IMG/VR virus record: IMGVR_UViG_3300037418_002332
Origin: a virus
Taxonomy: Duplodnaviria; Caudoviricetes
Length of the DNA: 64,000 bases
Strand: one strand, 5' to 3'
Part shown: one piece after another, positions 10,410 through 49,502 of the stretch
How the letters are laid out: every line of letters begins with the position of its first letter
Position numbering within the stretch: the stretch's first letter is position 1
The notes under the pieces: model-generated
Databases searched by the model: none
What the model was told of the DNA's origin: nothing
What the model saw: only the letters and a program-made list of their open reading frames with translations
Translations under genes and position numbers: made by a program

Positions 10410-11942
10410 ATGTCTTCCTCCTCTAATGCGCCTGTGAAGTCTACTCCTGAGCAAGAAGCCTACATGAATTTCTTCCTCGATCCCACCGAGAAGCGTTCCG
10501 GTGTTGTGATCGCCGTTGCCGGTTCAGGCAAAACCACTACCATTCTTTCCCCTCTCGATGACAAGCGTCTCGCCGGCAAGACCGTTGCGATGATCGCATT
10601 CAACAAGTCAATCGCCGGTGAGATCAAGGAAAAGCTCGCGAAGCGCGGCATCCCTTCGAACCGTGTTGAAGCCGGTACTTGCCACTCCTTCGGTCTTCGT
10701 GCTTATTCTGACGGCAACGGTCGTCCTCAGGTTGAAGGCAACAAGGTCTTCAAAATCACCGAAGATTACTTCGCGAATCATGGTGAGCTTCCTTTCGTGA
10801 TGAAGCCGATGGTTCGTAAGTTGGTTTCGATGGGTAAGCAGAACCTTGCCGGAATCGCCTTTCAGTTCAATGATATCGCAAAGTGGTGCGATTTTATCTA
10901 TCACTACGATATCAATACTTCCGATGCGATTATGGATGAGGAAATCGCCAAGGTTGCGATCGAAGTTCTCCGTATCTCGAACAATCAGCGGAAGGTCATC
11001 GACTTCGACGATATGATCTATCTTCCTATCCTCCAGAACCTGAAGTTTCAGAAATATGACTATGTCGTGATCGATGAAGCTCAAGATACCAATCCTGCCC
11101 GTCGTGAAATGGCGAAGCGTATGTTGGACCCTGAGACTGGTCGCTTGATGGCTGTTGGTGACGACAAGCAGGCGATCTACGGTTTCACTGGTGCTGGTGC
11201 TGATTCTCTGGAGCAGATCAAGAGGGATTTCGGCGCCACCGAAATGTCGCTGACCTACTGCTTCCGTTCCGGCAAGAAGATCGTTGAGTTCGCTAAGCAG
11301 TGGAATGAGAAGATTCAGCCTGCTCCGAACGCGATCGACGGCGAAGTGTCGAACCTTGAGATGGAGAAGTTCTACGCCGAGGAACTCACGGCCGAAAAGG
11401 TTATGCTTTGCCGTAACACCAAGCCTCTGATTGAGGTTGCCTTCACTCTGATCCGTAAGGGCATCCCGGCTTATGTTGAGGGACGCGATATCGGTGAGGG
11501 CCTGAAGAAGCTGGCCACCCGCTGGAAAATCAAGCGTATCGACCAGCTGATCGACAAGCTGGAGGCTTTCAAGGCTCGTGAGCTCAAGAAGGCTCGTGAC
11601 AAGAATGATGATAGCAAGGTCCAGTTCGTTGAGGATCAGGTTGCTACGCTGATGGTTATCATCGACCGATGCCAGAATGCTAAGCGTCATCTTATCGATG
11701 ATGTGGTCGCTGAGATCAATATCCTTTTCCGGGATACGGATGAAGGTCAGCGTCCCGCTTGCTTCACCCTCTCGACGATCCATAAGTCGAAGGGTCGCGA
11801 GTGGAATACGGTTTACTGGCTGGACCGTCTTGGTACCCTTCCTTCGAAGTATGCTAAGCAGGCCTGGCAGCTTCAGCAGGAAAGCAACCTGTGCTACGTC
11901 GCGGCAACCCGCGCGAAGCAGAAGCTGATCGAGGTTGCGTAA
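10410..11942 (+). CDS. UvrD/Rep-family SF1 helicase
   Basis: AVAGSGKTTT, IDEAQD, VGDDKQAIYGF, CFRS, TIHKSKGREW, YVAATRAK. Confidence 0.93.
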   Translation: MSSSSNAPVKSTPEQEAYMNFFLDPTEKRSGVVIAVAGSGKTTTILSPLDDKRLAGKTVAMIAFNKSIAGEIKEKLAKRGIPSNRVEAGTCHSFGLRAYSDGNGRPQVEGNKVFKITEDYFANHGELPFVMKPMVRKLVSMGKQNLAGIAFQFNDIAKWCDFIYHYDINTSDAIMDEEIAKVAIEVLRISNNQRKVIDFDDMIYLPILQNLKFQKYDYVVIDEAQDTNPARREMAKRMLDPETGRLMAVGDDKQAIYGFTGAGADSLEQIKRDFGATEMSLTYCFRSGKKIVEFAKQWNEKIQPAPNAIDGEVSNLEMEKFYAEELTAEKVMLCRNTKPLIEVAFTLIRKGIPAYVEGRDIGEGLKKLATRWKIKRIDQLIDKLEAFKARELKKARDKNDDSKVQFVEDQVATLMVIIDRCQNAKRHLIDDVVAEINILFRDTDEGQRPACFTLSTIHKSKGREWNTVYWLDRLGTLPSKYAKQAWQLQQESNLCYVAATRAKQKLIEVA

Positions 11943-23658: not shown

Positions 23659-24050
23659 GCGATACAGAAATTGTAGAAGGAAATTTGGAACAAGGTAATT
23701 TTGATGTGACAGAATTCAAATCAGCATTAGCTAATGGTTCGATAAATTCAGCTTTATTTCAATTCAATTTTGATAATGAGTCAACAATGCCGAACATTCC
23801 ATATTTGGCATTCAAGTATAAATTGTCCCAATCCAAGTTGAAAATTTGGTTTTATGAAACTGAAGATGGTATTTGGATTGACGGTGAAAATACTAAACTG
23901 ATTAAATTGAGTGTTTTCAAGGCTGATGGCACCAAAGCATATACAATTTCACTTGATGTTGAATTTGCGAAAGCTTCAACCAAAGGAAGTTGGGCAACTG
24001 GAAATAAGATTAAAGAATATAAGTTTACATACAGGGTATTGTCCAATTGA
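23655..24050 (+). CDS. degenerate tail-tube (gp19/gp54-like) paralogue
   Basis: FDVTEFKSALANG..SALFQF and SWATGNKIKEYKFTY resemble gp19 N- and C-terminal motifs (recalled). Confidence 0.5.
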   Translation: MSDTEIVEGNLEQGNFDVTEFKSALANGSINSALFQFNFDNESTMPNIPYLAFKYKLSQSKLKIWFYETEDGIWIDGENTKLIKLSVFKADGTKAYTISLDVEFAKASTKGSWATGNKIKEYKFTYRVLSN

Positions 24051-24904
24051 TTAGTGCTAAAATAATTCTCGGTTCTGAGTATAACGGAAAACGCATCACA
24101 ACCTTTGAATTGACATATCCACGTTTCATTCATGCTGAATTCATGACACATCGTGTATTCAGCCGAAATGCTGCCTCATCAAGAGCAATTCCGGTTCTTA
24201 AGATGTTGAAGATGATTTGGAATGATATGGCTATGCCTATCCATTGGGGTGCTAACCAATCAGGCATGCAGGCAAAGCAAGAACTTTCTCCAATGAGAAA
24301 GTGGTTCGTTCGAAAAATTTGGCGCGGTGCAGGACGAACTGCTTTGGCTGCTGCTTGGTTAATGAATAAGTTTGGTGCGCATAAGCAAATTGTTAATCGT
24401 ATAGTTGAACCATGGTCACATATCACTGTTATCATGACTACAACTGAACTTGATAATTGGTTTGAACTTCGTGATCATCCTGATGCCCAACCTGAAATTC
24501 ATGAACTCGCAAAACAAATGCGCGAAGCAGTTCGAACATATTACTATGATAAGCTCAAGGCTGATGAATGGCATTTGCCATATGTTAAAGACTATGAAAA
24601 AGCAAAGTATTCATTGTTAAAATGTATTCAAGTGTCGGTTGCGCGTTGTGCACGTGTGTCATATCTGACTCATGATGGTCAATTGTCTTTGTTTGAAAAG
24701 GATGTTCAACTTTACGAACGTCTAGTTGGATCAGTTCCACTTCATGCATCACCAGCTGAACATCAAGCTGCTCCTGTGTTGAATGCAGGTGAGAAGAAAT
24801 ATCAAGGTAACTTTTTTGGCTGGAAACAGTTTAGAAAAATTCTTGAAGAAAAGATGGCAGGCGGTAATTCAACCCTTGTTCAAACGACGTTCGCCTATAA
24901 ATAG
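24047..24904 (+). CDS. thyX: FAD-dependent thymidylate synthase
   Basis: THRVFSRNAASSRAIP, ARCARVSY, HASPAEHQA. Confidence 0.9.
   Translation: MISAKIILGSEYNGKRITTFELTYPRFIHAEFMTHRVFSRNAASSRAIPVLKMLKMIWNDMAMPIHWGANQSGMQAKQELSPMRKWFVRKIWRGAGRTALAAAWLMNKFGAHKQIVNRIVEPWSHITVIMTTTELDNWFELRDHPDAQPEIHELAKQMREAVRTYYYDKLKADEWHLPYVKDYEKAKYSLLKCIQVSVARCARVSYLTHDGQLSLFEKDVQLYERLVGSVPLHASPAEHQAAPVLNAGEKKYQGNFFGWKQFRKILEEKMAGGNSTLVQTTFAYK
24896..24903 (+). promoter_or_regulatory. T4 late promoter
   Basis: exact TATAAATA upstream of nrdA. Confidence 0.7.
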
Positions 24905-24957
24905 TGTTCCTTACAATGAGCCTGTTCATGGCTCATTTTCCATTTCCAGGAGTTTAA

Positions 24958-27255
24958 ATGTCCATAACAATCAAGAAGCGCAGTGGCGCCGACGAAATTC
25001 TACAAATTGACAAAATCCATAAACAACTTGAATTTGCCTGCGAAGGCATTCACAATGTTTCCGTTTCAGAAATCGAGTTGAGATCGGAACTACAGTTCTA
25101 CAACAACATGACGACTGAAGAAATTCAAGAAACGTTGATTAAGACAGCTGCGGATTTGATCACTGAAGAAACACCAAATTATCAATATGTTGCTTCACGT
25201 TTGATCAACTTCGATTTGAGGAAGAAAGTTTTCGGTGATACTGAACCAAAATCAATCTACGAAATCGTAAAAGCTGGTGTTGCAGCAGGGTTCTATGAAC
25301 CTGGATTGCTAGACTGGTACACTGAATCCGAATGGGATTCTATGAATCGTATGTTGAGACATGAACGTGACTTCAACATTGTTTACGCTGGAATGGAACA
25401 ATTCAGACGAAAGTATCTCGTCAAAAATAAAATCACCGACCAATACTATGAAACACCTCAAATGGTTTACATGTTGATCGCAGCAACAGCTTTCAATATG
25501 GAAGAAAAATCAAAAAGACTAAAGCTGATCAAGGAGTTTTATAATGCAGTTAGTAATTTCGACATTGGCTTGCCTACTGCTATTTTGGCTGGAGTTAGAA
25601 CTCCTATTCGCCAGTTCTCCAATTGTACTCTTATTGACGTGGGCGATAGTCTTGATTCCATTAATGCAGCTGCATCATCTATCGTCAAATACGCTAGCAA
25701 GAGAGCTGGTATTGGTTTCAACGTTGGTCGTCTTCGTGCTATTGGGTCTCCTATTCGTAATGGAGAAGTCACCCACACCGGTGTTCTTCCCTTCATTAAG
25801 TATCTCACTGCTGCATTAAAATCATGTAATCAAGGTGGCATTCGTAATGCTTCCGCAACATGTAATTTCCCAATGTGGCACTATGAATATGAAGACTTGG
25901 TTGTTTTGAAGAATAACAAGGGTGTTGAAGAAGCACGTAATCGTTCAATTGACTATGTCATTCAAATCAATCAAGTTCTACTACAAAGATTGATTGACGG
26001 CAAAGACATTACATTGTTCTCACCATCTGATGTTCCTGATTTGTATGAAGCATTTTTCAGATCAAATGCTGAATTTGAATATCTTTACAACAAGTATGAA
26101 AAAGATAAATCAATTCGTCATCGTAAGATTTCCGCATTGGAAGCTTTCAGCCAATTGATCCTTGAGCGTAAGGAAACAGGTCGTATCTATATTCAATTTG
26201 TTGATAATACCAATGAACATGGTGCATATGATAGTTCAAAGCAAATCATTACCATGACTAACCTTTGTGTTGAAATCACTCCAATCACCAAGCCTCTTGA
26301 TGATGTGAATGATCCAAATGGTATTGTTTCACTATGTACTTTGGCTTCATACAATTTGGGTAATGTAAAGACACCATCTGACTTTGAACGTATGTCTTCA
26401 ATCTTGGTTCGCTTCCTTGATAACATTCTAACATATCAAGATTATTTGCTTCCAGCTGCGAAACATTCAACTGATCTTTACAGAAACATTGGTATTGGCT
26501 TGACCAACTTGGCATATTTCCTTGCTAAGCATAACCAAAAATATACTGATGAATCAACTACTGAGTTTCTTGCTCCGTTCTTTGAAGCATACTCATATTA
26601 CACGATCAAAGCTTCAATGGAATTGGCTAAGGAACGCGGTGCTTGCTTGGGCATCGATGATACCAAATGGAAGCAAGGGTTGACTCCGGTTGATACATAC
26701 CGCAAAACTCTTGACGAATACACCAAAAACGATTTACTTCTTGATTGGAATCAGCTAAAAAGTGATTTGAAAGAGTTTGGTGTTCGTAATGCTAATCTCA
26801 TGGCACAAATGCCTAATGAGACCAATTCTCAGGTCATTAACTCAACCAACGGCATTGAACCACCGCGTTCACTAGTTTCCGTTAAGAGTTCCAAGGATGG
26901 TGCTCTTAAGCAGGTCGTGCCTGAAATTTCAAGATTGAAGAAGCGATATGAACTTCTTTGGGATCAAAAGTCTCCCGAAGGATATCTGAAAATCTGCGGT
27001 CTTTTGACTAAGTTCATTGATCAAAGTATTTCAACAAACACTTCTTACAATCCTGAGTTCTATGAAGACAAAATCATTCCTATGTCAGTGTTGATCAAGG
27101 ATTTAATTACTGCCTATCGTATGGGTATCAAGACCTTGTACTATCACCAAGAAAATGACATGGCTGGTGAAATTGAAATCAAAGCTGAAGTTCCAATCTT
27201 TGTTGAATCAACTGATTCGTTGGAAGATGAGTTCTGCGAAAGTTGTGCCATTTAA
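24958..27255 (+). CDS. nrdA: Ribonucleotide reductase class Ia alpha
   Basis: ATP cone, FSNC, NQGGIR, TNLCVE, NSTNGIEPPR, C-terminal CESCAI. Confidence 0.97.
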   Translation: MSITIKKRSGADEILQIDKIHKQLEFACEGIHNVSVSEIELRSELQFYNNMTTEEIQETLIKTAADLITEETPNYQYVASRLINFDLRKKVFGDTEPKSIYEIVKAGVAAGFYEPGLLDWYTESEWDSMNRMLRHERDFNIVYAGMEQFRRKYLVKNKITDQYYETPQMVYMLIAATAFNMEEKSKRLKLIKEFYNAVSNFDIGLPTAILAGVRTPIRQFSNCTLIDVGDSLDSINAAASSIVKYASKRAGIGFNVGRLRAIGSPIRNGEVTHTGVLPFIKYLTAALKSCNQGGIRNASATCNFPMWHYEYEDLVVLKNNKGVEEARNRSIDYVIQINQVLLQRLIDGKDITLFSPSDVPDLYEAFFRSNAEFEYLYNKYEKDKSIRHRKISALEAFSQLILERKETGRIYIQFVDNTNEHGAYDSSKQIITMTNLCVEITPITKPLDDVNDPNGIVSLCTLASYNLGNVKTPSDFERMSSILVRFLDNILTYQDYLLPAAKHSTDLYRNIGIGLTNLAYFLAKHNQKYTDESTTEFLAPFFEAYSYYTIKASMELAKERGACLGIDDTKWKQGLTPVDTYRKTLDEYTKNDLLLDWNQLKSDLKEFGVRNANLMAQMPNETNSQVINSTNGIEPPRSLVSVKSSKDGALKQVVPEISRLKKRYELLWDQKSPEGYLKICGLLTKFIDQSISTNTSYNPEFYEDKIIPMSVLIKDLITAYRMGIKTLYYHQENDMAGEIEIKAEVPIFVESTDSLEDEFCESCAI

Positions 27256-27623
27256 TGAACAATTTCGATAAAACCCAATTGACATTGCAAATGCTCGAAA
27301 AATTTGATCGGGCAATTGCTTTGGGTGGTAAACATGTTGCCACTGAATATTTGTATTCAGGATTGGGAACCCATAATCGTGATGGCACGTTAACTAAGGA
27401 ATATGGTGGTCAAAGAACAGATGATGATCACCCTGTTCATTCTAAAAAGGTAGAACCACCTGCTGCGAAAATTTCAAATCCAATTTTCACTGTTGAAATA
27501 GAACTTGAATTGGTTCAAGATTTGAAAGCAATAAGCCATCTAAATTGGAAAGATGAATTAGCAAAGGTTCTTGGTACTGAACTGGTGGTACAATACGAAG
27601 AATGGGAAAGAAACAATCCTTAA
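27255..27623 (+). CDS. small protein ending in a major-capsid (gp23) fragment
   Basis: LELVQDLKAISHLNWKDELAKVLGTEL resembles gp23 IELAQDLRAVHGMDADAELSGILATEI (recalled). Confidence 0.65.
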   Translation: MNNFDKTQLTLQMLEKFDRAIALGGKHVATEYLYSGLGTHNRDGTLTKEYGGQRTDDDHPVHSKKVEPPAAKISNPIFTVEIELELVQDLKAISHLNWKDELAKVLGTELVVQYEEWERNNP

Positions 27624-27886
27624 GAGGTACAATTATGCCTACAATCTATTTGGGTGTTTTTGGACTGGCAATCTCAATTTTTCTCGCAGTGATGAGAAAT
27701 ACTGATGTGAATGAGGAAAATAAAGATGGACAAAAAAGCGACGGCGATAACGCTGAGAGCGATCGCAGCGATGGCGGAAAAGCTGGCTGACGATCTTACT
27801 GGCAATCGTTTGTGGGAAGGCGAATTCAATGAGGCTGCATCACAAATCAAAAAGTATGCAGCCTCATTGCCAGATGAAAAAGGAAG

Positions 27887-28441
27887 ATGGTAATGAAACT
27901 TTATACAGCACCCGATGACATTTCGGAAACAAGAAAAATCAAGGGAAACTATGATTTCAAAGTTTTTCTTGGTGGCTCGATTGAAATGGGAAAGGCTGTT
28001 GATTGGCAAAATGAAGTGGTTGATTACTTCAAGCACCAAGACCGCTTAGTGCTCTTCAATCCTCGTCGTCCTGATTGGGACTCAACTTGGAAGCAAGACC
28101 CAACTCCCGGAACTCCATTTCATGAACAGGTGAATTGGGAACTTGATGCTCTCAATGATTCAGATTATGTTTTGTTCTATTTTGATCCAAACACCGTCAG
28201 TCCTATCACTTTGTTGGAATTGGGCATCTATTCACAACACAAAGATAAAGTTATCGTGGTCGTTTGTCCTCCCGATTATTTCAGGTATGGAAATGTTAAG
28301 ATCGTTTGTAATCGTGAACGACTCATCCACTTTACGTCATTGAAGCCTGCCTTGGAATGGCTTGGCACCGATATTCATGACGTTATCGCTTTGTCTGATC
28401 CAGACTATGAAGAAAAACAATTGAAGCCTTTGGAGAAATAA
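27887..28441 (+). CDS. nucleoside 2-deoxyribosyltransferase-like protein
   Basis: VFLGGSI..DWQ, QVNWE, SPITLLELG. Confidence 0.8.
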   Translation: MVMKLYTAPDDISETRKIKGNYDFKVFLGGSIEMGKAVDWQNEVVDYFKHQDRLVLFNPRRPDWDSTWKQDPTPGTPFHEQVNWELDALNDSDYVLFYFDPNTVSPITLLELGIYSQHKDKVIVVVCPPDYFRYGNVKIVCNRERLIHFTSLKPALEWLGTDIHDVIALSDPDYEEKQLKPLEK

Positions 28442-29556
28442 TGGAAATCAATGTTGACTACACCAAGAGAAAAATGTTTCTCAATGGTGACGTTTCAATC
28501 GCTCGTTATGATCAATTGAAATATCCAATGCTTGACACATTGGTCAAGCGTCAAAGAAGCTTCTTCTGGCAACCTGAAGAAATTCAAGATATTGGTCGTG
28601 ATAAATCCGACTTCAATCTTCTTCAACCTCATGAAAAGCACATTTTCGTTTCAAACCTTTTGAGACAAACGCTTTTGGATTCAATCCAAGGTCGAGCTCC
28701 TTCTGAAGTTTTCACTCCAATCACCTCAGTTCCTGAGGCTGAAATTTGGACGCAAACTTGGGCTTTCTCTGAAACAATCCATTCATATTCATACACTTAC
28801 ATTGTCAGAAATATTTTTGCCAATCCAAGTGAAGTGTTTGACAAAATGCCGTCCATTCAAGAAGTTGTAGATTGCGGTGTTGATATTTCCAAATTTTATG
28901 ATGAATTAGCAATTTACAATAAATTGGTTGATATTTATGGCTATGATGCAGATGTTGGCCATCACGAAATAACTCTCGATCCATTGAATGAGTATGAGCA
29001 TAAGAAACGTCTTTGGAAGTGTTTGATGTCAGTTAACATTCTTGAAGGCATCCGTTTCTATGTTTCATTTGCTTGCTCATGGGCTTTTGCCGAACGTAAG
29101 ACTATGGAAGGCAATGCAAAAATCATTAAGTTGATTGCGCGTGATGAAAATCTTCATCTGGCTTCAACACAATACATGCTTCGTGAATTGAAGAAAGAAG
29201 ATGCTGACTTTGCACAAATTGCAGAAGAAACTGAATCTGAATGTATTCAAATGTTCAATGAAGCTATTCGACAAGAAAAGGAATGGGCTGATTATCTGTT
29301 CAAAGATGGATCGATGATCGGGTTGAATGCAAACATTCTCAAGCAATACGTGGACTATATAGCAAAACAAAGAATGAAGGCTGTTGACCTACCTTGTGAA
29401 CTAGAAGTGAAAACCAACCCACTTCCATGGACAAATAAATGGATCGGTGGTAAGGAAGTACAAAATGCACCACAGGAAGTTAATATCACCAGTTATCAAG
29501 TTGGTGCTATTAAATCAGATCTTGATTCTGATTCCTTGAAAGGTTTCAAACTTTAA
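28441..29556 (+). CDS. nrdB: Ribonucleotide reductase class Ia beta
   Basis: FFWQPEEI, DSIQGR, ETIHSYSY, EGIRFYVSF, RDENLH, APQE. Confidence 0.97.
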   Translation: MEINVDYTKRKMFLNGDVSIARYDQLKYPMLDTLVKRQRSFFWQPEEIQDIGRDKSDFNLLQPHEKHIFVSNLLRQTLLDSIQGRAPSEVFTPITSVPEAEIWTQTWAFSETIHSYSYTYIVRNIFANPSEVFDKMPSIQEVVDCGVDISKFYDELAIYNKLVDIYGYDADVGHHEITLDPLNEYEHKKRLWKCLMSVNILEGIRFYVSFACSWAFAERKTMEGNAKIIKLIARDENLHLASTQYMLRELKKEDADFAQIAEETESECIQMFNEAIRQEKEWADYLFKDGSMIGLNANILKQYVDYIAKQRMKAVDLPCELEVKTNPLPWTNKWIGGKEVQNAPQEVNITSYQVGAIKSDLDSDSLKGFKL

Positions 29557-29783
29557 TGCCAACTGCAAATACAGTTTTAAATATCAAGCAATATTTTGAT
29601 GTAGAAAATTATGAACCAACTGTTATCTATGACAACAAAATCCATGTGGTCGGTAGATTAAAAAGAACTTACAATGATGTTGCATTTATCTATGCGCCAT
29701 ACATTCCATTGCAAATGGTTGGAGCACCAGCAAATACTGCAATAAAAACGGTTGGATTTAAAACGAGATACGGCATTGTCTGA
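29556..29783 (+). CDS. 75-aa protein carrying gp23 C-terminal block
   Basis: AFIYAPYIPLQMVGA...VGFKTRYGIV resembles gp23 AGIYYAPYVAL...MGFKTRYGI (recalled). Confidence 0.75.
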   Translation: MPTANTVLNIKQYFDVENYEPTVIYDNKIHVVGRLKRTYNDVAFIYAPYIPLQMVGAPANTAIKTVGFKTRYGIV

Positions 29784-30030
29784 GTGGCCAAAAGATACTA
29801 TCTATGATCCACAAATACATGTTATCGGACGAATTGAACAAAATCAATATGATCCAGTTTTGCTTGGCATAGTCAGAAGAACGTGGCCAACGTTGCTTGC
29901 TAATTCAATTATTGGATCGCAAAATATGATGAATCCTTCAGGACAAGTATTTTCACTGAGATCAAAATACAGTGGAGCAACTTCAAATACCCAAACAGTT
30001 ATAATAAAGGACGAAATAGATGGCGAGTGA
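29776..30030 (+). CDS. 84-aa protein carrying gp23 Gol-region block
   Basis: PVLLGIVRRTWPTLLANSIIGSQNMMNPSGQVFSLRSKY resembles PAVMGMVRRAIPNLIAFDICGVQPMNSPTGQVFALRAVY (recalled). Confidence 0.75.
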   Translation: MSEWPKDTIYDPQIHVIGRIEQNQYDPVLLGIVRRTWPTLLANSIIGSQNMMNPSGQVFSLRSKYSGATSNTQTVIIKDEIDGE

Positions 30031-30196
30031 TTATTACAGCAGAGAACTTAGACAAAGAGCAATTGAACTTGCAGTTATGGTAACACGAGATTCAACAACT
30101 GATATTAAAATTGTGTTGAGCGCTGCAAAAGAAATTGAAAAATACATCATGGATGGTGATGAAGAAAAAGCAAAGCTAGACCTACTAGAAGAGTAA
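30020..30196 (+). CDS. 58-aa hypothetical protein (not in ORF track)
   Basis: MASDYYSRELRQRAIELAVMV...LLEE*; fills gap before topoisomerase. Confidence 0.6.
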   Translation: MASDYYSRELRQRAIELAVMVTRDSTTDIKIVLSAAKEIEKYIMDGDEEKAKLDLLEE

Positions 30197-30198
30197 GC

Positions 30199-32061
30199 AT
30201 GACAGACGGAATTAAAAAACTTTCAGACTATGAGCACGTGAGATTGAGAACTGAGATGTATCTTGGTTCTCGTTCACCGCATACTCAAGAAATCATTTCC
30301 TACAATGAAGGTGTTCCAGTTCTAAAAGAATACACTTGGACACCAGCAGCATTCACAGCTTTCCGTGAAGTGTTGGACAACTCATTGGATGAAATAATCG
30401 GTCATGGTTTCGGCTCAAGAATCGATGTAGAGTACGATGAAGCTAATAAGATTTTTTCAGTGAAAGATAATGGTCGTGGCATTCCAATCACATGGGATGA
30501 CAAGGAAGAAATGCACAAGGCAACTTTGGTGTTGACTCATACTCGTGCAGGTCGTAACTTCGGTGAACGGCAAGAAGTTGCTGGTACAAATGGTATTGGC
30601 GCGTCGGCTGTGAATTTTTGTTCAGAATTTTTTGAAGTCACAATCAATCGTGATAACACCAAGTTCGAACAAAAATTCGTTGAAGGTGAACATGAGTTGA
30701 AAATTGATCCGCCTAAGATGCGTGAAGTGAAAAGTGATGCATCAGGCACCGCAATTCGCTTTAAACTTTCATCAAAGGTGTTCAGTTCAATTCTACTTCC
30801 ACTGGAATTCATACGTGATCGCCTTTATGAAGTTGCTGTATTCAATCCTCAGTTGACTGTTTACTTCAACAAGGAAAAGATCAAGGTTGGTGCGACGATT
30901 GAACGTTCCCTTTTCAACAAGGAAAAGGTGATCAAATTTGATATCAACGAAGATGGTTTCCGTTCAACTTTCTTTGTCAAACCAAATTTCCAATTGAATT
31001 CATCTGAATATATGTTCTCGTTCGTGAACAACGTTCCAGCTTTCAATGGTGGAACTCATATGGATACATTTCGTCGTCAATTCATTTCAGGTGTTTTGGA
31101 TGCTTTGACTCGCGAAGGCAAGAAACGTAAATTGACTCCAAATCGATCTGATGTCAATGAAGGTTTGTTGATTCTAAATCACACAAAGATGAGAGCGCCG
31201 AACTTCGACAGTCAGTCCAAAACTCGTTTGATTAACGAAGAACCTGCAAAGATCATCACAGCTGCAATTGATGCTAAGGAAATCGCTAAGATGCTCCGTA
31301 AGCATGAAGATTGGGTTGAACAAATCTTTGAACGTTGCGCATTCCGTACAAACAAGCAAGACCAAAAGGATTTGGAAAAGGAATCAAAGAAGCTTTCACG
31401 TCGAAAAATTCCAAAACTTCGTGACGCAACCTCAAGTAATCGTCAAGATTGTATCTTGTTGCTAGCTGAGGGAGATTCAGCTATCTCCGGTTCAGCTGCG
31501 GTTCGCGATCCAAAAATCCATGCTGGATTGCCATTGCGCGGTAAAGTTCTAAACGTCAATGGTGAGTCACCAAAAACCGTCATTGACAATAAAGAACTGG
31601 CTGATATCATGTCTGCAATAGGCTTGGCCATCGGCAAAAAAGCAGTGAGAGATGATTTGCGATATGGTAGAATTTATTTGGCCCATGACGCTGATCCTGA
31701 CGGTGCAAACATCGGTGCTTTATTGGTGAATTTTTTCCATACATTTTGGCCTGAACTATTTACCGATGAAAAGAATCCATTTATAAGTGTATTCATGACT
31801 CCGTTCATCATTGCTCAAAAAGGCAAGGAACGTCGTTATTGGTATTCAGATAATTATGCTGAATTCAAGCCTGAAGATTATAAAGGCTGGTCAATCACCA
31901 GAGCCAAGGGTCTTGGTACTCTTGAAGAACCCGATTGGGAACATTCTCTGAAGTCACCAAAACTTTTCCATATAGTTGATGACGGTAAGATGAAAGAAGC
32001 TTTGGATTTGATTTTCAATGGTTCAAAGGCTGACGATCGGAAATTGTGGATGGGAATTTAG
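30199..32061 (+). CDS. gp39: Type II topoisomerase large subunit (gp39+60 fused)
   Basis: HVRLRTEMYLGS, DNGRGIP, GTNGIGAS, AEGDSA, PLRGKVLN, DADPDG, KGLG. Confidence 0.96.
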   Translation: MTDGIKKLSDYEHVRLRTEMYLGSRSPHTQEIISYNEGVPVLKEYTWTPAAFTAFREVLDNSLDEIIGHGFGSRIDVEYDEANKIFSVKDNGRGIPITWDDKEEMHKATLVLTHTRAGRNFGERQEVAGTNGIGASAVNFCSEFFEVTINRDNTKFEQKFVEGEHELKIDPPKMREVKSDASGTAIRFKLSSKVFSSILLPLEFIRDRLYEVAVFNPQLTVYFNKEKIKVGATIERSLFNKEKVIKFDINEDGFRSTFFVKPNFQLNSSEYMFSFVNNVPAFNGGTHMDTFRRQFISGVLDALTREGKKRKLTPNRSDVNEGLLILNHTKMRAPNFDSQSKTRLINEEPAKIITAAIDAKEIAKMLRKHEDWVEQIFERCAFRTNKQDQKDLEKESKKLSRRKIPKLRDATSSNRQDCILLLAEGDSAISGSAAVRDPKIHAGLPLRGKVLNVNGESPKTVIDNKELADIMSAIGLAIGKKAVRDDLRYGRIYLAHDADPDGANIGALLVNFFHTFWPELFTDEKNPFISVFMTPFIIAQKGKERRYWYSDNYAEFKPEDYKGWSITRAKGLGTLEEPDWEHSLKSPKLFHIVDDGKMKEALDLIFNGSKADDRKLWMGI

Positions 32062-32385
32062 TGTGACATGGCGAATTGGTAGATTATGGATTGTTTGGAT
32101 TGGTTTACGCATGCCCATAATTTGGTGGGCATGCAAGGACTATAAACTTAGACGCATACCATCGGCATTTCGCCGATATTTTTCAATGAAATGGAATGTA
32201 ATATGCAGGGAATTCTCACTTTTCAGGTTTCGATTGATATTGGCAATGATGAATTCTGGGAAGATGTCACTCGTGCCGAAACGATTGATCTTAACATGGT
32301 ATCCGAGGAAATTCAAGATGCACTTGAAAATCGAGGATTTGAAGTAAAGGTCAAGTTCTCGGAGGCAAATCTGAGGAACTAAGTA

Positions 32386-32634
32386 ATGAAGAAGATCATT
32401 CACGTTAACAGACAATTCATCGCCAACAATGCTAAAGATGGTGGTAAGCGGCCAGTTTACACAATTAAGGCATCTGGCAAAACTCGATACGGTCGTGAAG
32501 TCATTATCAATGGTCCATCAAAACTTGTATATGATGGAACTCAATTGAAGTGCGGTGCACGTGCTTGGATTGAAACGGATAGTGATATTGAAATCGTTGA
32601 TGAAATGTCATTTTCAGAAGCAAAGGTAGCATGA
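32386..32634 (+). CDS. conserved phage hypothetical protein
   Basis: IHVNRQ...GPSKLVY...LKCGARAWIET family. Confidence 0.7.
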   Translation: MKKIIHVNRQFIANNAKDGGKRPVYTIKASGKTRYGREVIINGPSKLVYDGTQLKCGARAWIETDSDIEIVDEMSFSEAKVA

Positions 32635-32909
32635 TACAACATCTAAAATCCTGGCCAAGATACTTTGATGCTATTTTGGCAGGAACCAAAAAACATGATA
32701 TCCGTAAAATGGATCGTCGATTTGAAATTGGCGATATTATCATGTTGGAAGAATTCGATCCAAAAACATCAAATTATACAGGCCGAAAGCTGAAAGCAAA
32801 AATTACATGGATTTCATCAAGTGATGAACCTTGTTCTATTGCTGAAGATGCTTTGAGTTCTGATTTCTGCGTGTTGAGTTTGGAAGTTCAATATCAAGGG
32901 ATTGTATGA
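32631..32909 (+). CDS. DUF3850/ASCH-like protein
   Basis: HLKSWPRYFDAILAGTKKHDIRKMDRRFEIGD..LEEF. Confidence 0.8.
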   Translation: MIQHLKSWPRYFDAILAGTKKHDIRKMDRRFEIGDIIMLEEFDPKTSNYTGRKLKAKITWISSSDEPCSIAEDALSSDFCVLSLEVQYQGIV

Positions 32910-33130
32910 AGGCATACATAATTTCTAATAAAGAATGGTCTGAAAAAATTTTACTTGAAATGGGATTGAAAACTCTTTCAACCACAATTGGTGAAGCTTG
33001 GCGTCGTCATGTTGGAAATAATCATAATCCAATAGATTATCCAATCATTGTTCAACGTTGGAGTGACAAAGGTTACAAACCATTTGAAGTTGAAGTCAAT
33101 TTGGTAAAGGAAAAAAATGACAAAAGATGA
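32906..33130 (+). CDS. hypothetical protein
   Basis: overlapping-start ORF. Confidence 0.55.
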   Translation: MKAYIISNKEWSEKILLEMGLKTLSTTIGEAWRRHVGNNHNPIDYPIIVQRWSDKGYKPFEVEVNLVKEKNDKR

Positions 33131-35751: not shown

Positions 35752-36440
35752 AAGCATACTTCATCACTAATATAGAGAATGATGAAGCTGCCGCAGTTGG
35801 TCACAGACATGTTAATCTGGTGAACTCAAAAGGATCGTTCGAAGCTGAAATATATGAAGCTGTCAAAGGCAAAGAAGCTTATGACATTTTCAAAACTTAC
35901 AACATCAAGTTTTTGGATGAAAAATATCAAACTGGTGAATTTGTTGAACGTAATCGTCAAATGACATATGATAAGAAGGAAGGCGTGGCCGGTTGCTTCG
36001 CTTCTCATTATATGCTTTGGCAACGTTGCGTGGCTGCTGATGAATCAATTGGTATTTTTGAATACGATGCAAAACAGATTGCTGATATGCCAGCAGTTGA
36101 ATTTGACAATGTTTTGTATTTGAGTGCATGGCGAAATTGGGATGGAACTGATTCGGACAAATATTTCGAAAAACGAACTGAACAAGGTATTCATGATTAC
36201 ATTGGATACAATCGTTGGGGATATAACAATTGTATGTCAGGCACTCATGCATATTTGATTAAGCCGCATGCAGCACAAAAATTGATTGATGTTGCACATA
36301 AGAAAGGTTGGTTTCCGGTTGATAGATTTTTCTCAACTGATTTAACCAATATGTCAAAACAAACATTGAATCCTGCGGTTTTTAAGGTGGCATGTAGTTT
36401 GAATTTATCATATCAATACAGAGTGGTGAAAATAACATGA
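35742..36440 (+). CDS. Glycosyltransferase family 25-like
   Basis: GCFASHYMLW, IFEYDA, GTHAYLIKPHAAQKL. Confidence 0.8.
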   Translation: MDMKAYFITNIENDEAAAVGHRHVNLVNSKGSFEAEIYEAVKGKEAYDIFKTYNIKFLDEKYQTGEFVERNRQMTYDKKEGVAGCFASHYMLWQRCVAADESIGIFEYDAKQIADMPAVEFDNVLYLSAWRNWDGTDSDKYFEKRTEQGIHDYIGYNRWGYNNCMSGTHAYLIKPHAAQKLIDVAHKKGWFPVDRFFSTDLTNMSKQTLNPAVFKVACSLNLSYQYRVVKIT

Positions 36441-36649
36441 GAGAACGCAAAGCAATACCAGCAACTCATTGCGATTATTTGATTCGAATGCATATGAAAT
36501 CAATTGAAGCAATCAGTAAATATATGGCAGGTGGTTGTGGAACTGGCGCATTGAATGGACCTATGATGGTTTGTGTTGAATTGATCAGAATGCGTGATAT
36601 GATACAGAAATCATTGGAGGAATATAGTGACAAGCCGAAAGAAAGTTAA
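36437..36649 (+). CDS. hypothetical protein
   Basis: 70-aa ORF. Confidence 0.5.
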   Translation: MRERKAIPATHCDYLIRMHMKSIEAISKYMAGGCGTGALNGPMMVCVELIRMRDMIQKSLEEYSDKPKES

Positions 36650-37064
36650 TCGACAAAAGGTCGAAGAATCATTGGAAAAGGCCAGTGTTGAAACTCACGC
36701 TTTCCAAGATAGTGGTCATACTGACGAATTTTTGGAACAACAATATGGTATAAAGCCGAAAGATAATACTGAGTTTCTAAATGAACTTGAAAATTATTTG
36801 AAATCACCACCATTGTATGAGTTTCAAAATAGAATCAAAGATACACCAACTAAAACTTGGTTAGAACTCAATAAAACTGTAGTGGATGTGCTACATCCAA
36901 AACCAAAAGAAGAAGTTACCGCTGATCCAGCGAAACAACGCATTATTCTGACTGTTGATTTGACTGATTTTAGGGACCTGTTAATAAATATTCGTGCTAA
37001 AATCCAAGATAGCATTGTAAAACTTAACCAAATTTGGAACGAAAAAAATGAAAGAAAAGATTAA
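36627..37064 (+). CDS. hypothetical protein
   Basis: 145-aa ORF. Confidence 0.55.
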   Translation: MTSRKKVNRQKVEESLEKASVETHAFQDSGHTDEFLEQQYGIKPKDNTEFLNELENYLKSPPLYEFQNRIKDTPTKTWLELNKTVVDVLHPKPKEEVTADPAKQRIILTVDLTDFRDLLINIRAKIQDSIVKLNQIWNEKNERKD

Positions 37065-37230
37065 CCAAATCCTCCGTGAACACGCAGGTGATCCAGCAAA
37101 AGCAACCGCTGAAATCAGAAAAATCACTTCACAAAATTTCAGCCTTTACAATGAAGGCGGTTCACTGTATGTTGAATTTGATGATCCAACTGACTCTACT
37201 GACTTCGGAATTTCCCTCCTAGAGGAGTAA
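37048..37230 (+). CDS. hypothetical protein
   Basis: 60-aa ORF. Confidence 0.55.
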   Translation: MKEKINQILREHAGDPAKATAEIRKITSQNFSLYNEGGSLYVEFDDPTDSTDFGISLLEE

Positions 37231-41301: not shown

Positions 41302-41858
41302 GTTACGGAAATGTAACCGTTTTCGCTGGACCAATGTTCTGCGGAAAAACATCACATTTGCTACAACAATACATCTGGAAAAATCACGCCAAAGATTACT
41401 CGCTTCTAATCAAACCTGCTTTTGATGATCGTTATTCAATGACGGAAGTCGTTACGCATCTTGGATTGAAAGCAACTGCTGCAAATATTACAGATGCGGC
41501 AAGGATCATGGATTATTTCCAAAACGATCAATATCGAAACTTGATGATCGATGAATGTCAATTTTTCACTGCACCGCACGTTCGCGGTGACATTTTTCCA
41601 TATCTGAAACTGCTTCTCAATCGCGGTGTCAATATATACGCATCGGGACTTGATATGGATTGGATGGGCGAACCATTCGAAGTTACGGCAAAGCTTTTGG
41701 CTATGGCAGATAACGTCCATAAGCTCAAATCAGTTTGTAATTATTCAGGCAAAGAAGCCTCAAAGACATATAAAAAGAGCTTATCTGGTGGATCAGTGGA
41801 ACTTGGTGAAACTGATAAATATGAAGCCAGAAATAACGAATTTTGGAGATACGAATGA
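41298..41858 (+). CDS. tk: Thymidine kinase
   Basis: GPMFCGKT, IDECQFF, GLDMDW.GEPF, KYEA. Confidence 0.93.
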   Translation: MSYGNVTVFAGPMFCGKTSHLLQQYIWKNHAKDYSLLIKPAFDDRYSMTEVVTHLGLKATAANITDAARIMDYFQNDQYRNLMIDECQFFTAPHVRGDIFPYLKLLLNRGVNIYASGLDMDWMGEPFEVTAKLLAMADNVHKLKSVCNYSGKEASKTYKKSLSGGSVELGETDKYEARNNEFWRYE

Positions 41859-42193
41859 CCAACTTTACAAAAGAAGAAACATTGGGTGCTATCAAATGGT
41901 TTCTTCTTGATTTGACAAGAGAACAATTTGCTGAATTCAATGATAAGGAAACAAGATCAAAATTCGTTGAAGTGACAAATGAGTTTTTGGAACGTATGAA
42001 GTTTCATGAAATGATTGAAAACTATATTGTTATTTGCGATGAAACAAATAACACAGAACCTCAAATTGATGCAAATGAATTTAGATCATCGACTTATTTG
42101 AAATTTTCAAACGATCCGGAATTTACATGTTTGAATACTGTGTATGCAAGAACTGGAATTGAATTGGAGCATATAAAGGGGATGATGCCTTGA
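41855..42193 (+). CDS. stand-alone tail-sheath (gp18) C-terminal domain
   Basis: EFNDKETRSKF...YIVICDETNNTEPQIDANEF...LNTVYARTG resembles gp18 C-terminus (recalled). Confidence 0.8.
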   Translation: MTNFTKEETLGAIKWFLLDLTREQFAEFNDKETRSKFVEVTNEFLERMKFHEMIENYIVICDETNNTEPQIDANEFRSSTYLKFSNDPEFTCLNTVYARTGIELEHIKGMMP

Positions 42194-42522
42194 CATATGG
42201 ACAAGCTCTTGCCATAGACGTAAAATTACATTTATCTTTGGAATGGAATAAGCTATTCTTAGCTGAAAATTCCTCAGTAAATAGGGCGATTGTAACCTCA
42301 ACAGCCTGTTCCGTCCTTGATGGAATGGTGATGACTGATGACATTTATGATTTCAAGGTTGTTTGTGATCAAACGAACAATCTGCCTGGCGAAGATAAAA
42401 TCATTGTTGATGTTTATGTGAAACCGAAAAAAGTTGTGCAGTTTGTACATATGTCATGTGTCCTACCTGCTGATGATGGGTATATAATGGGAAGAAAAGT
42501 ATGCAGCAAGAGAGACTTGTAG
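42190..42522 (+). CDS. second stand-alone tail-sheath C-terminal domain
   Basis: IYDFKVVCDQTNN...VDVYVKPKKVVQFV. Confidence 0.75.
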   Translation: MTYGQALAIDVKLHLSLEWNKLFLAENSSVNRAIVTSTACSVLDGMVMTDDIYDFKVVCDQTNNLPGEDKIIVDVYVKPKKVVQFVHMSCVLPADDGYIMGRKVCSKRDL

Positions 42523-48178: not shown

Positions 48179-48802
48179 ATGACCGCCGCATTTACTGAGA
48201 TTCAGACTGCGACTGGTGAATTTTTTGATTATGCGCATTTTTCTGAAACCGATATCCATGAAGAAGATATCGCCCATGCTTTGAGTATGATTTGCAGATT
48301 CAATGGACACTGCTTGAAATTTTACTCAGTAGCAAAGCACCTTTGTTTGGTGCATGATTTGATGGAGTACGATCGTGTCGAAATGAAAAAACCATTGACA
48401 CGTGAAGATGTTTTCCACGGACTAATTCATGATGTTGGTGAAGCATATCTCACCGATATTCCAAGACCATTGAAGAATTACTTTACACAAAGCACTGAAT
48501 TCACTGCTTTCATGGATGACTACATCGATATTGAAAATAGAATCATTGAAGGCTTTGCGCGCAAATATCCATATGGTAAACATGCGCCTCATGCGGCAAC
48601 TGTGAAATACTATGACACATGGGCTTTGTTGCTTGAACAAAAATATCTGATGACCAAAACAAAGAAGGAATGGTCAATAAGTATTGCTGATTATCCTGAT
48701 GAACCTCATTTCGTTAAAGGCATGATGAATCCATTTTTGTATGAAAAAGATTGGGCACGTGAGTTCATGAATAGATTGGAATATTACAATGAAGTTGCTT
48801 GA
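48179..48802 (+). CDS. HD-domain 5'-deoxynucleotidase (YfbR-like)
   Basis: EDIAHALSMICRFNGH, YSVAKH, LIHDVGEAYLTDIPRPLK. Confidence 0.88.
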   Translation: MTAAFTEIQTATGEFFDYAHFSETDIHEEDIAHALSMICRFNGHCLKFYSVAKHLCLVHDLMEYDRVEMKKPLTREDVFHGLIHDVGEAYLTDIPRPLKNYFTQSTEFTAFMDDYIDIENRIIEGFARKYPYGKHAPHAATVKYYDTWALLLEQKYLMTKTKKEWSISIADYPDEPHFVKGMMNPFLYEKDWAREFMNRLEYYNEVA

Positions 48803-49502
48803 CAAAGTCAAGAAATTTTTCAAGAACACTTTTCCTGAGGTCAAAATCGATCCTGAAGTTCAATCAATGGTTGATTTGGGATTGATTTCACCAACACAAG
48901 CCTCGAATGTAACGCAGGTTCCGTTTCAAATTCAAAAGATTCAAGTGACTGCTAAATCAAGAACAATGGTTGCTCAATGGAACCATGAACCTGATTTATC
49001 TGATGAATGGTATTCTGAACGATACAATTTAGATTTTAGCGAATGTCCACAATGGAACAAAGAAATTTATGCAACTGTCTACGATCACTTCGCTGATACA
49101 CAAACTTCCATGTATCCTGTAACATTGACTCGTGAGCTTCCACGTGGATCAGGCAAATCAACCTTTTTCAGAAAGTTGATTGAGAATCTCTACGAAGCCA
49201 TGAGAAATGATCCGAAGTTGATGGTGAATAAAGTTGTTTACATTGGAGCAAATACGACTCAATGCAGAGAATTTTGCAAGTATTTTCTGCAAACCCAAAC
49301 TAACAACTTTCATCAAACAGGATTTTTGGTTTGGACTGCAAATTTGGCTCAAGCTTTGGATAATTCAAAGCTTTATCCGGCTGGCAAAAACATTCTCTAT
49401 ATTTTGGATGATGCTCTCGATGATCCAAATAGCTTCACCACTCAATCAATTAAAGACCGTCATGATAAAGTTATGATAGTCAAACTTTACACACCAAGAT
49501 AA
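48789..49502 (+). CDS. chimera: gp23 fragment plus terminase-like P-loop remnant
   Basis: PFQIQKIQVTAKSRTMVAQW; ELPRGSGKST; YILDD. Confidence 0.55.
   Translation: MKLLDKVKKFFKNTFPEVKIDPEVQSMVDLGLISPTQASNVTQVPFQIQKIQVTAKSRTMVAQWNHEPDLSDEWYSERYNLDFSECPQWNKEIYATVYDHFADTQTSMYPVTLTRELPRGSGKSTFFRKLIENLYEAMRNDPKLMVNKVVYIGANTTQCREFCKYFLQTQTNNFHQTGFLVWTANLAQALDNSKLYPAGKNILYILDDALDDPNSFTTQSIKDRHDKVMIVKLYTPR

Follow-up and report, generated by a model that had tools for sequence, protein, structure and literature searches.

Why should a piece of the major capsid protein be encoded directly behind a ribonucleotide reductase gene? The question is raised by a 75-codon open reading frame (ORF), here called ORF1, in a stretch of 64,000 nucleotides taken from a virus record of IMG/VR (IMGVR_UViG_3300037418_002332; Duplodnaviria, Caudoviricetes); this whole stretch is referred to below as the window. 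The source is a large T4-like phage that has so far been met only in soil and rhizosphere metagenomes. ORF1 follows nrdB, which encodes the small subunit of ribonucleotide reductase, and an original prediction made from the sequence had described it as consisting largely of the YAPY...GFKTRYG block at the C-terminal end of the T4-type capsid protein gp23. Tailed-phage capsid proteins are usually treated as single-purpose building blocks. The best explanation found here, which taken as a whole is given roughly an even chance of being correct, is that ORF1 would be a gp23-derived mini-gene, perhaps acting by mimicry.

The original prediction had proposed a profile search against gp23 as one of its checks and had named the lack of any hit as one refuting outcome. 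In that search the Pfam family PF07068 (Gp23) matched ORF1 with an E value of 3.7e-7 and 30.3 bits, above the curated gathering cut-off of 24.4, and the match pairs ORF1 residues 28-75 with profile positions 301-349 of 376. A match was also obtained with PHROG 138 (major head protein; E 2e-5). A tblastn search of 50,697 phage records with ORF1 gave matches in 422 of them; among the matches listed, all lie inside major capsid genes and involve ORF1 residues 8-75 at 36-40% identity. Comparison by blastp with a panel of seven gp23 proteins gave E 2.7e-10 over residues 3-75, and overall identity to the gp23 proteins tested is only 26-42%. The description of ORF1 as a free-standing copy of the gp23 C-terminal block is borne out by all four comparisons. 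Because the alignments reach from residue 3 to residue 75, descent from gp23 appears to extend over nearly the full length of the ORF; as judged from sequence, the entire ORF1, and not only its YAPY...GFKTRYG segment, is derived from the final conserved region in a capsid protein of T4 type. The alignment further shows that ORF1 retains the family-invariant positions D41, Y46, P48, P51, L52, F68 and R71. The ORF ends two residues past GFKTRYG, and the C-terminal tail of gp23 is absent.

Comparison with solved structures places ORF1 residues 39-74 on residues 443-479 of T4 gp23, a match that is weak alone (E 0.5) and agrees with the profile matches. The equivalent of this T4 segment in ORF1 comprises strands of the peripheral (P) domain together with the P loop. 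In T4 gp23, residue 455 lies in the P-domain sheet and is a gp31-bypass site, and the head-length mutation sites 457, 460 and 461 are located at the P loops, the junction of three capsomers (PMC9546572). All four sites fall inside the stretch that ORF1 copies. Since ORF1 residues 39-74 match T4 residues 443-479 with the P-loop sites included, ORF1 by alignment reproduces the strands of the capsomer edge together with the P loop. The full HK97-type architecture is absent from ORF1, which has 75 residues and covers only the portion of the profile given above. ORF1 is also not part of a head module, its neighbors being thyX, nrdA, nrdB and the topoisomerase II subunits. A weak match of residues 6-41 to the PFU domain of yeast Doa1 (E 0.04, PDB) was taken as chance.

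As originally described, ORF1 is present and intact, running from an ATG at 29556 to a TGA at 29781-29783, and it lies directly behind nrdB: the nrdB stop and the ORF1 start share an A in the sequence TAATG at 29554-29558. The identity of the upstream gene is given by PF00268 (Ribonuc_red_sm), which is recorded for an identical product, and by 55-59% identity to nrdB of IMG/VR phages. An AAGG lies about 12 nucleotides 5' of the ORF1 ATG, and the plus strand of the nrdB-ORF1 junction is without a promoter-like or terminator-like site. The T4 late-promoter-type motif TATAAATA occurs in the window only at 24896 and 62067, and none was found near ORF1. The codon score of ORF1 (0.38) is inside the range of the long genes of the window (0.46 +/- 0.09), with scores of about -0.7 and -1.0 for the other two frames over the same stretch. 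The exact 75-residue product is a called gene on six Logan contigs (public assemblies), and the largest public contig bearing ORF1 measures 250,291 bp. The ORF1-bearing stretch is present in seven metagenome runs from soil and rhizosphere sources; in contigs from four of these soil and rhizosphere runs, ORF1 and the frame behind it (ORF2, see below) are identical, with no insertion or deletion at their junction. The runs carrying the stretch include no RNA run, and 0.04 of the sampled words were present in one rhizosphere metatranscriptome, a value that has no bearing on expression. From its intact frame, codon usage and junction with nrdB, ORF1 is probably a genuine small gene.

Free-standing fragments of gp23 were also found in other phages, by scanning whole records of comparator genomes with the Gp23 profile. 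The complete 371.5-kb genome IMGVR_UViG_3300032157_000001 has four extra Gp23 matches, each in an open frame of between 85 and 120 codons; they cover profile positions 12-49, 125-177, 172-199 and 307-349. These are the same four blocks as in the window, and each fragment is far closer to the gp23 of that phage than to any other gp23. Sinorhizobium phage Phosso has two extra Gp23 matches, one of which, a C-terminal block, makes up the first half of gene 170. In the Phosso record PV764938.1, a gp23 N-terminal block lies at about 182235-182852 (+), in frame upstream of gene 276, within a region that the annotation leaves as intergenic. The true start of this gene probably lies upstream of the deposited one, and the product would then have about 205 residues, with the capsid block at its N-terminus. 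At E <= 1, the same scans revealed no stray small-ORF gp23 fragments in Agrobacterium phage Atu_ph07 (490 kb), three Rak2-like genomes (about 360 kb) or KVP40, arguing that such fragments are not simply noise of any large genome. KVP40 (AY283928.2) has at 36321-37145 (+) a 302-residue frame far from gene 23 that covers most of the Gp23 profile (E 2.6e-41); by that coverage it is a shortened capsid paralogue and not a single-block fragment. In Atu_ph04 (MF403007.1), a weak Gp23 match at 10524-10610 (-), to profile positions 3-31 with E 7e-4, lies in a 149-residue frame far from the capsid gene and is possibly a further N-block mini-gene.

In four genomes together there are 11 fragment matches, and not one of them covers the conserved core of the A domain (profile positions about 200-300). 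This gives a hint that N-arm and P-domain elements are preferred, with detection bias as a possible cause. Of the 100 clusters closest to ORF1 in the ESM Atlas, 93 consist of short proteins with a Gp23 domain, some of them labelled as fragments; these may be pieces from contig ends and serve as a lead only. No account of capsid-fragment genes or decoys in nature was found in a literature search, and the Atu_ph07 paper is without mention of them. Capsid-fragment mini-genes constitute an undescribed but recurrent type to which ORF1 probably belongs by its design.

The Phosso gene 170 family (XYS97328.1, P0122-P0125) provides a measure of selection on genes of this type. Its members are gp23 C-terminal fragment genes of 120-126 codons, with homologues of the Phosso gene at 86, 73 and 65% identity in metagenomic Phosso-like phages, giving four phages in total and identities of 65-86% within the set. 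The gene lies beside ClpP, NUDIX and IF-1 genes in all four phages. Pairwise ratios of nonsynonymous to synonymous substitution (dN/dS) are 0.07-0.13, and synonymous sites are close to saturation; this applies to the capsid-derived half as well as to the tail. By this measure the gene 170 family is under strong purifying selection and functional. Identity to P0122-P0125 is 28-39% for ORF1, compared with 34-40% to gp23 segments, and no sequence kinship among the mini-genes beyond their likeness to gp23 was seen for ORF1.

A number of results weigh against reading ORF1 as a functional gene of such a class. No orthologue other than ORF1 itself was found among 5.8 billion clustered proteins in the length range searched, no small homologue among 1.84 billion representatives, no relatives in JGI metagenome contigs, and no gp23 fragment beside nrdB in 80 related phage loci. 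ORF1 is identical in all seven metagenome runs, and because there is neither an orthologue nor any population variant, selection on it is not measurable. The mini-genes as a class may reflect several independent events rather than one family, an origin that is possible because ORF1 is no closer to the gene 170 family than to ordinary gp23. The recurrence of the same four blocks could be partly a detection bias, since these blocks are among the best conserved of the Gp23 profile. Structure prediction gave no confident fold for ORF1 alone: the AlphaFold2 model has a mean predicted local distance difference test (pLDDT) value of 43 from a shallow, 13-row alignment, and the ESM Atlas model has a pLDDT of 0.27. 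Finally, tblastn found no full capsid gene within the window, and the phage's own gp23 lies outside it; nor does this gp23 appear among the 120 best relatives of Phosso gp23. The phage was not found in IMG/VR with an exact pattern, nor in the phage records with megablast.

ORF1 shares part of its sequence with the frame that follows it. The shared leader segment, located in Table 1, corresponds in ORF1 to the gp23 strand just ahead of YAPY, according to an alignment to a gp23 hidden Markov model and in agreement with the tblastn and blastp alignments. The local alignment of ORF1 and ORF2 scores 53, compared with 22.9 +/- 4.2 for shuffled sequences, and none of 2000 shuffles scored as high. In the leader core, 8 of 11 residues are identical in ORF1 and ORF2, and 5 of these 8 are encoded by different codons. 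Comparison of the two leaders at the DNA level gave nothing past short chance matches. The leader duplication is, judging from these codon differences, an old one in which the peptide rather than the DNA has been conserved.

The leader also resembles Kelch repeats. The best non-self matches of ORF1 in the 1.84 billion representatives are Kelch-repeat proteins, with the leader matching each blade; phmmer E values down to 6e-17 reflect a single query segment of 20-30 residues that is matched 2-10 times per target. No Pfam Kelch family matched ORF1 at E <= 1, ORF1 contains a single blade-like motif and no propeller, and no other leader or Kelch-like copies were found within the 64-kb window. A Kelch origin of the leader was considered and set aside as unproven, given the lack of a Pfam Kelch match, the single motif and the alignment of the same segment to gp23. 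The Kelch likeness is probably convergent.

Behind ORF1, the original prediction had placed an ORF bearing the Gol segment of gp23, translationally coupled to ORF1. The capsid block is indeed there: the ORF2 frame matches Pfam Gp23 with E 8.4e-12 (profile positions 3-48), and the block aligns with T4 gp23 residues 89-132 (E 2.5e-6), Gol region included. The proposed coupling finds no such backing. ORF2 is in the +1 frame relative to ORF1 and overlaps it by 32 nucleotides. The frame contains no ATG or GTG, its sole start being the TTG at 29752, 32 nucleotides inside ORF1, for which no Shine-Dalgarno sequence was found. The junction of the two frames (GTC-TGA-G) has no slippery sequence, no upstream Shine-Dalgarno-like stimulator and no stable RNA structure (z 0.21), and a search with Rfam over 24000-33000 found no family. 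Furthermore, the ORF2 codon score is 0.08, against 0.46 +/- 0.09 for the genes of the window, and on two contigs with public gene calls ORF2 is not among the called genes. Initiation at the TTG, a recent loss of gene function and a former fusion with ORF1 are all possible readings of the frame, whose translation is uncertain. A structure prediction for the complex of ORF1 and ORF2 gave a score of 0.00 with both chains at a pLDDT of about 30, which counts neither for nor against binding.

Two further ORFs in the window carry pieces of gp23 (Table 1). The helix ORF matches Pfam Gp23 with E 0.016 (profile positions 153-183); in addition, tblastn with residues 188-219 of Melnitz gp23 gave E 0.002, and blastp against a cyanophage-type gp23 gave 55% identity over 33 residues (E 5e-7). 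The TAKSR-block ORF matches Pfam Gp23 with E 0.016 (profile positions 127-157), with E values of 0.1 by tblastn and 0.001 by blastp, and its block is the weakest of the four in the window. The window thus contains four gp23 blocks, each in a different ORF, and a single gp23 type is the best match for every one of them. Fragment mini-genes in the window are, on profile evidence, not confined to the capsid protein. Two adjoining small ORFs behind thymidine kinase (41843-42193 and 42190-42522, both +) match the tail-sheath C-terminal domain PF17482, with E 8.7e-7 (above the cut-off) and E 0.033. The TAKSR-block ORF also has a P-loop-like GSGKST motif, and its matches to AAA-type Pfam families are weak (E about 0.1).

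Table 1. Position and content of the capsid-fragment ORFs, their parts and nrdB in the window
Feature	Position	Strand	Content
nrdB	28441..29556	+	Ribonucleotide reductase small subunit; 371-residue ORF, stop overlaps ORF1 start
ORF1	29556..29783	+	75 residues; by homology the C-terminal piece of a T4-type major capsid protein as an ORF of its own; P-domain strand with YAPY-PL, P-loop position, strand GFKTRYG
Leader segment	29625..29678	+	ORF1 residues 24-41 (IYDNKIHVVGRL...; VIYDNKIHVVG...YNDV); repeated in ORF2
ORF2 frame	29752..30030	+	92 codons from TTG 29752, 81 from Trp 29785
Leader copy in ORF2	29800-29853		Joined to the Gol-type block
Gol-type block in ORF2	29842-29973		gp23 N-terminal block
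Helix ORF	27255..27623	+	Behind nrdA; C-terminal part (about 27495-27587) matches the P-domain short helix and start of the spine helix (ELAQDL block)
TAKSR-block ORF	48789..49502	+	237 residues; residues 34-67 (about 48888-48989) match the gp23 strand preceding the short helix

How might a capsid fragment of this kind work? In the preferred explanation, ORF1 would derive from the last 70 or so conserved residues of gp23, comprising an A-domain hairpin, a P-domain strand, the P loop and the next strand. This piece would have moved into an early-type cluster for nucleotide metabolism and replication, where it would share a transcript with nrdB and use the overlapping TAATG for its translation. 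It would represent a type of mini-gene found in some huge T4-like phages, each with one N-arm or P-domain block, the kinship among them being one of design. The ORF1 product would then mimic the edge of a capsomer, presenting its strands and P loop to the usual docking partner and so blocking, delaying or diverting that partner's contact. Candidate partners would be other gp23 subunits at the time of assembly, folding factors, and host proteins able to recognize gp23; possible contacts include pairing with neighboring P-domain or N-arm strands and with the other P loops at the threefold junction. Action by mimicry is suggested because ORF1 has too few residues for the HK97 fold and, by prediction, does not fold by itself; such a product could hardly have an effect other than by the contacts of these strands in gp23. 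The mimicry step by itself is held with low confidence, much lower than the explanation as a whole. The signs of function in ORF1 are indirect, namely the intact frame despite divergence, the invariant residues, the codon usage, the start fused to nrdB and the leader paralogue.

The same features bear on the alternative that ORF1 is an inert relic, a capsid piece that was dropped beside nrdB by illegitimate recombination and is still open and read through, yet functionless. ORF1 is an orphan without orthologue or confident fold, the adjoining ORF2 looks half-dead (no proper start, no Shine-Dalgarno sequence, codon score 0.08, not called), and large phage genomes tolerate spare DNA, all of which would suit a relic. 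However, at 26-42% identity to gp23 a neutral fragment would be expected to lose its frame: with stop codons at about 6.5% per codon at 39% G+C, the chance of 75-92 open codons is roughly 0.2-0.7%. In addition, the residues that survive are the family-invariant ones, codon usage is gene-like, the start is fused to the nrdB stop, and the leader paralogue has been conserved as protein through synonymous changes. Analogous fragment genes elsewhere are under strong purifying selection, again unlike a relic. This alternative is therefore judged fairly unlikely. An origin of ORF1 and ORF2 as one circularly permuted mini-capsid gene (C-terminal block, leader copy, N-terminal block), read through a +1 shift or broken by a recent frameshift, would account for two frames that abut, +1 apart with a 32-nucleotide overlap, and for the missing start of ORF2. 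The junction lacks the slippery sequence, Shine-Dalgarno-like stimulator and RNA structure (z 0.21) that such a shift would use, however, and a recent frameshift fits poorly with the same 75-residue product in several assemblies and with the contigs of four runs, none of which has an indel. Since ORF1 is also a clean unit that ends two residues past the gp23 block, a permuted gene appears highly improbable.

A role in host defense has also to be considered. As an immune decoy or antagonist, the fragment would be made early and would occupy a defense sensor for the capsid edge (for example Lit, CapRel or a capsid-sensing STAND protein), silencing it before late gp23 appears. Capsid-sensing defense systems do exist (PMC13581612). 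The location of ORF1 in an early-type cluster, outside the head module and with no T4 late-promoter motif nearby, would suit such a role, and so would the copies of the tail-sheath C-terminal domain (PF17482, E 8.7e-7), since the copied proteins are then abundant virion proteins of the kind that sensors detect. The known free capsid pieces or proteins, however, switch defense on and not off (Gol with Lit, capsid with CapRel). Moreover, no sensor is known for the C-terminal block that ORF1 contains, the sensors studied so far recognize folded shapes and ORF1 has no confident fold alone, and no literature on such decoys was found. A decoy is accordingly considered very unlikely. Somewhat less doubtful, and still distinctly unlikely, is the broader proposal that ORF1, the Gol frame, the helix ORF and the TAKSR-block ORF form a deliberate set of self-derived capsomer-edge peptides. 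If that were true, the set would include the elements responsible for joining capsomers at the quasi-threefold axes and, in T4, for gp31 dependence and head length. With such sets, huge T4-like phages would control the place and time of polymerization of their very large shells, or titrate a host factor that recognizes these elements, and a new class of virus-encoded regulators built from pieces of the phage's own capsid protein would be at hand.

The preferred explanation, a gp23-derived mini-gene, can be set beside several known systems. T4-type gp23 itself (PF07068, HK97 fold; PDB 5VF3, 6UZC, 7VS5) shares with ORF1 the C-terminal region with YAPY-PL and GFKTRYG, and in T4 the P-domain strand and P-loop region copied in ORF1 joins capsomers at the quasi-threefold axes. 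Unlike gp23, ORF1 spans about 48 of 376 profile positions, lacks the HK97 fold and the C-terminal tail, and lies in a nucleotide-metabolism cluster. The T4 vertex protein gp24 is likewise a second derivative of the capsid gene retained in the same genome, but in contrast to the 75-residue ORF1 it is of full length, has the HK97 fold and becomes part of the shell. The Gol peptide (about residues 93-122 of T4 gp23) binds EF-Tu and triggers the e14 Lit protease, and is the well-known case of an isolated gp23 stretch with an activity of its own. It is ORF2 and not ORF1 that copies this stretch (T4 residues 89-132). Gol is part of gp23 and in free form activates a host defense, whereas ORF1 represents the other end of gp23 and has no Gol region.

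Two of the fragment sets described above are closer parallels. Phosso gene 170, which begins at the GYKG strand, is like ORF1 a stand-alone gp23 C-terminal gene with YAPY-PL included, located outside the head module of a huge T4-like phage of soil bacteria. It differs in its length of 120-126 residues, in reaching the gp23 C-terminus with an insertion, and in its ClpP/NUDIX/IF-1 neighborhood. The ORFs of IMGVR_UViG_3300032157_000001 resemble those of the window in comprising N-terminal, TAKSR-type strand, helix and C-terminal blocks in separate frames far from the capsid gene; in contrast to ORF1, they are close to that phage's own gp23, have other flanks, lie in other places, and none adjoins nrdB.

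The wider interest lies in the finding that several unrelated huge T4-like phages retain small early-region genes made of single capsid blocks, which suggests that capsid pieces have been turned into regulators, assembly helpers or counter-defense tools. In T4, the copied blocks are involved in capsomer joining, head length and chaperonin dependence, and the Gol segment is also among them. With two such genes, and with Sinorhizobium meliloti as a host on which it grows, Phosso makes direct tests feasible. ORF1 itself would be of modest value, as a further, orphan example of the capsid-fragment mini-genes.

The genes around ORF1 form a co-directional run that includes DNA polymerase, a UvsX-like recombinase, helicases, thyX, nrdA, a deoxyribosyltransferase-like gene, nrdB and both topoisomerase II subunits. 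The large topoisomerase subunit is 57% identical to that of Phosso and 55% identical to that of Atu_ph07. Of the two TATAAATA occurrences, that at 24896-24903 (+) lies 55 nucleotides 5' of the nrdA start; two per window is the chance expectation. In some T4-like phages, the gap between nrdA and nrdB is filled by mobile endonuclease genes. In the window, a nucleoside 2-deoxyribosyltransferase-like gene (PF15891, E 5.7e-31) lies between nrdA and nrdB at 27887-28441 (+).

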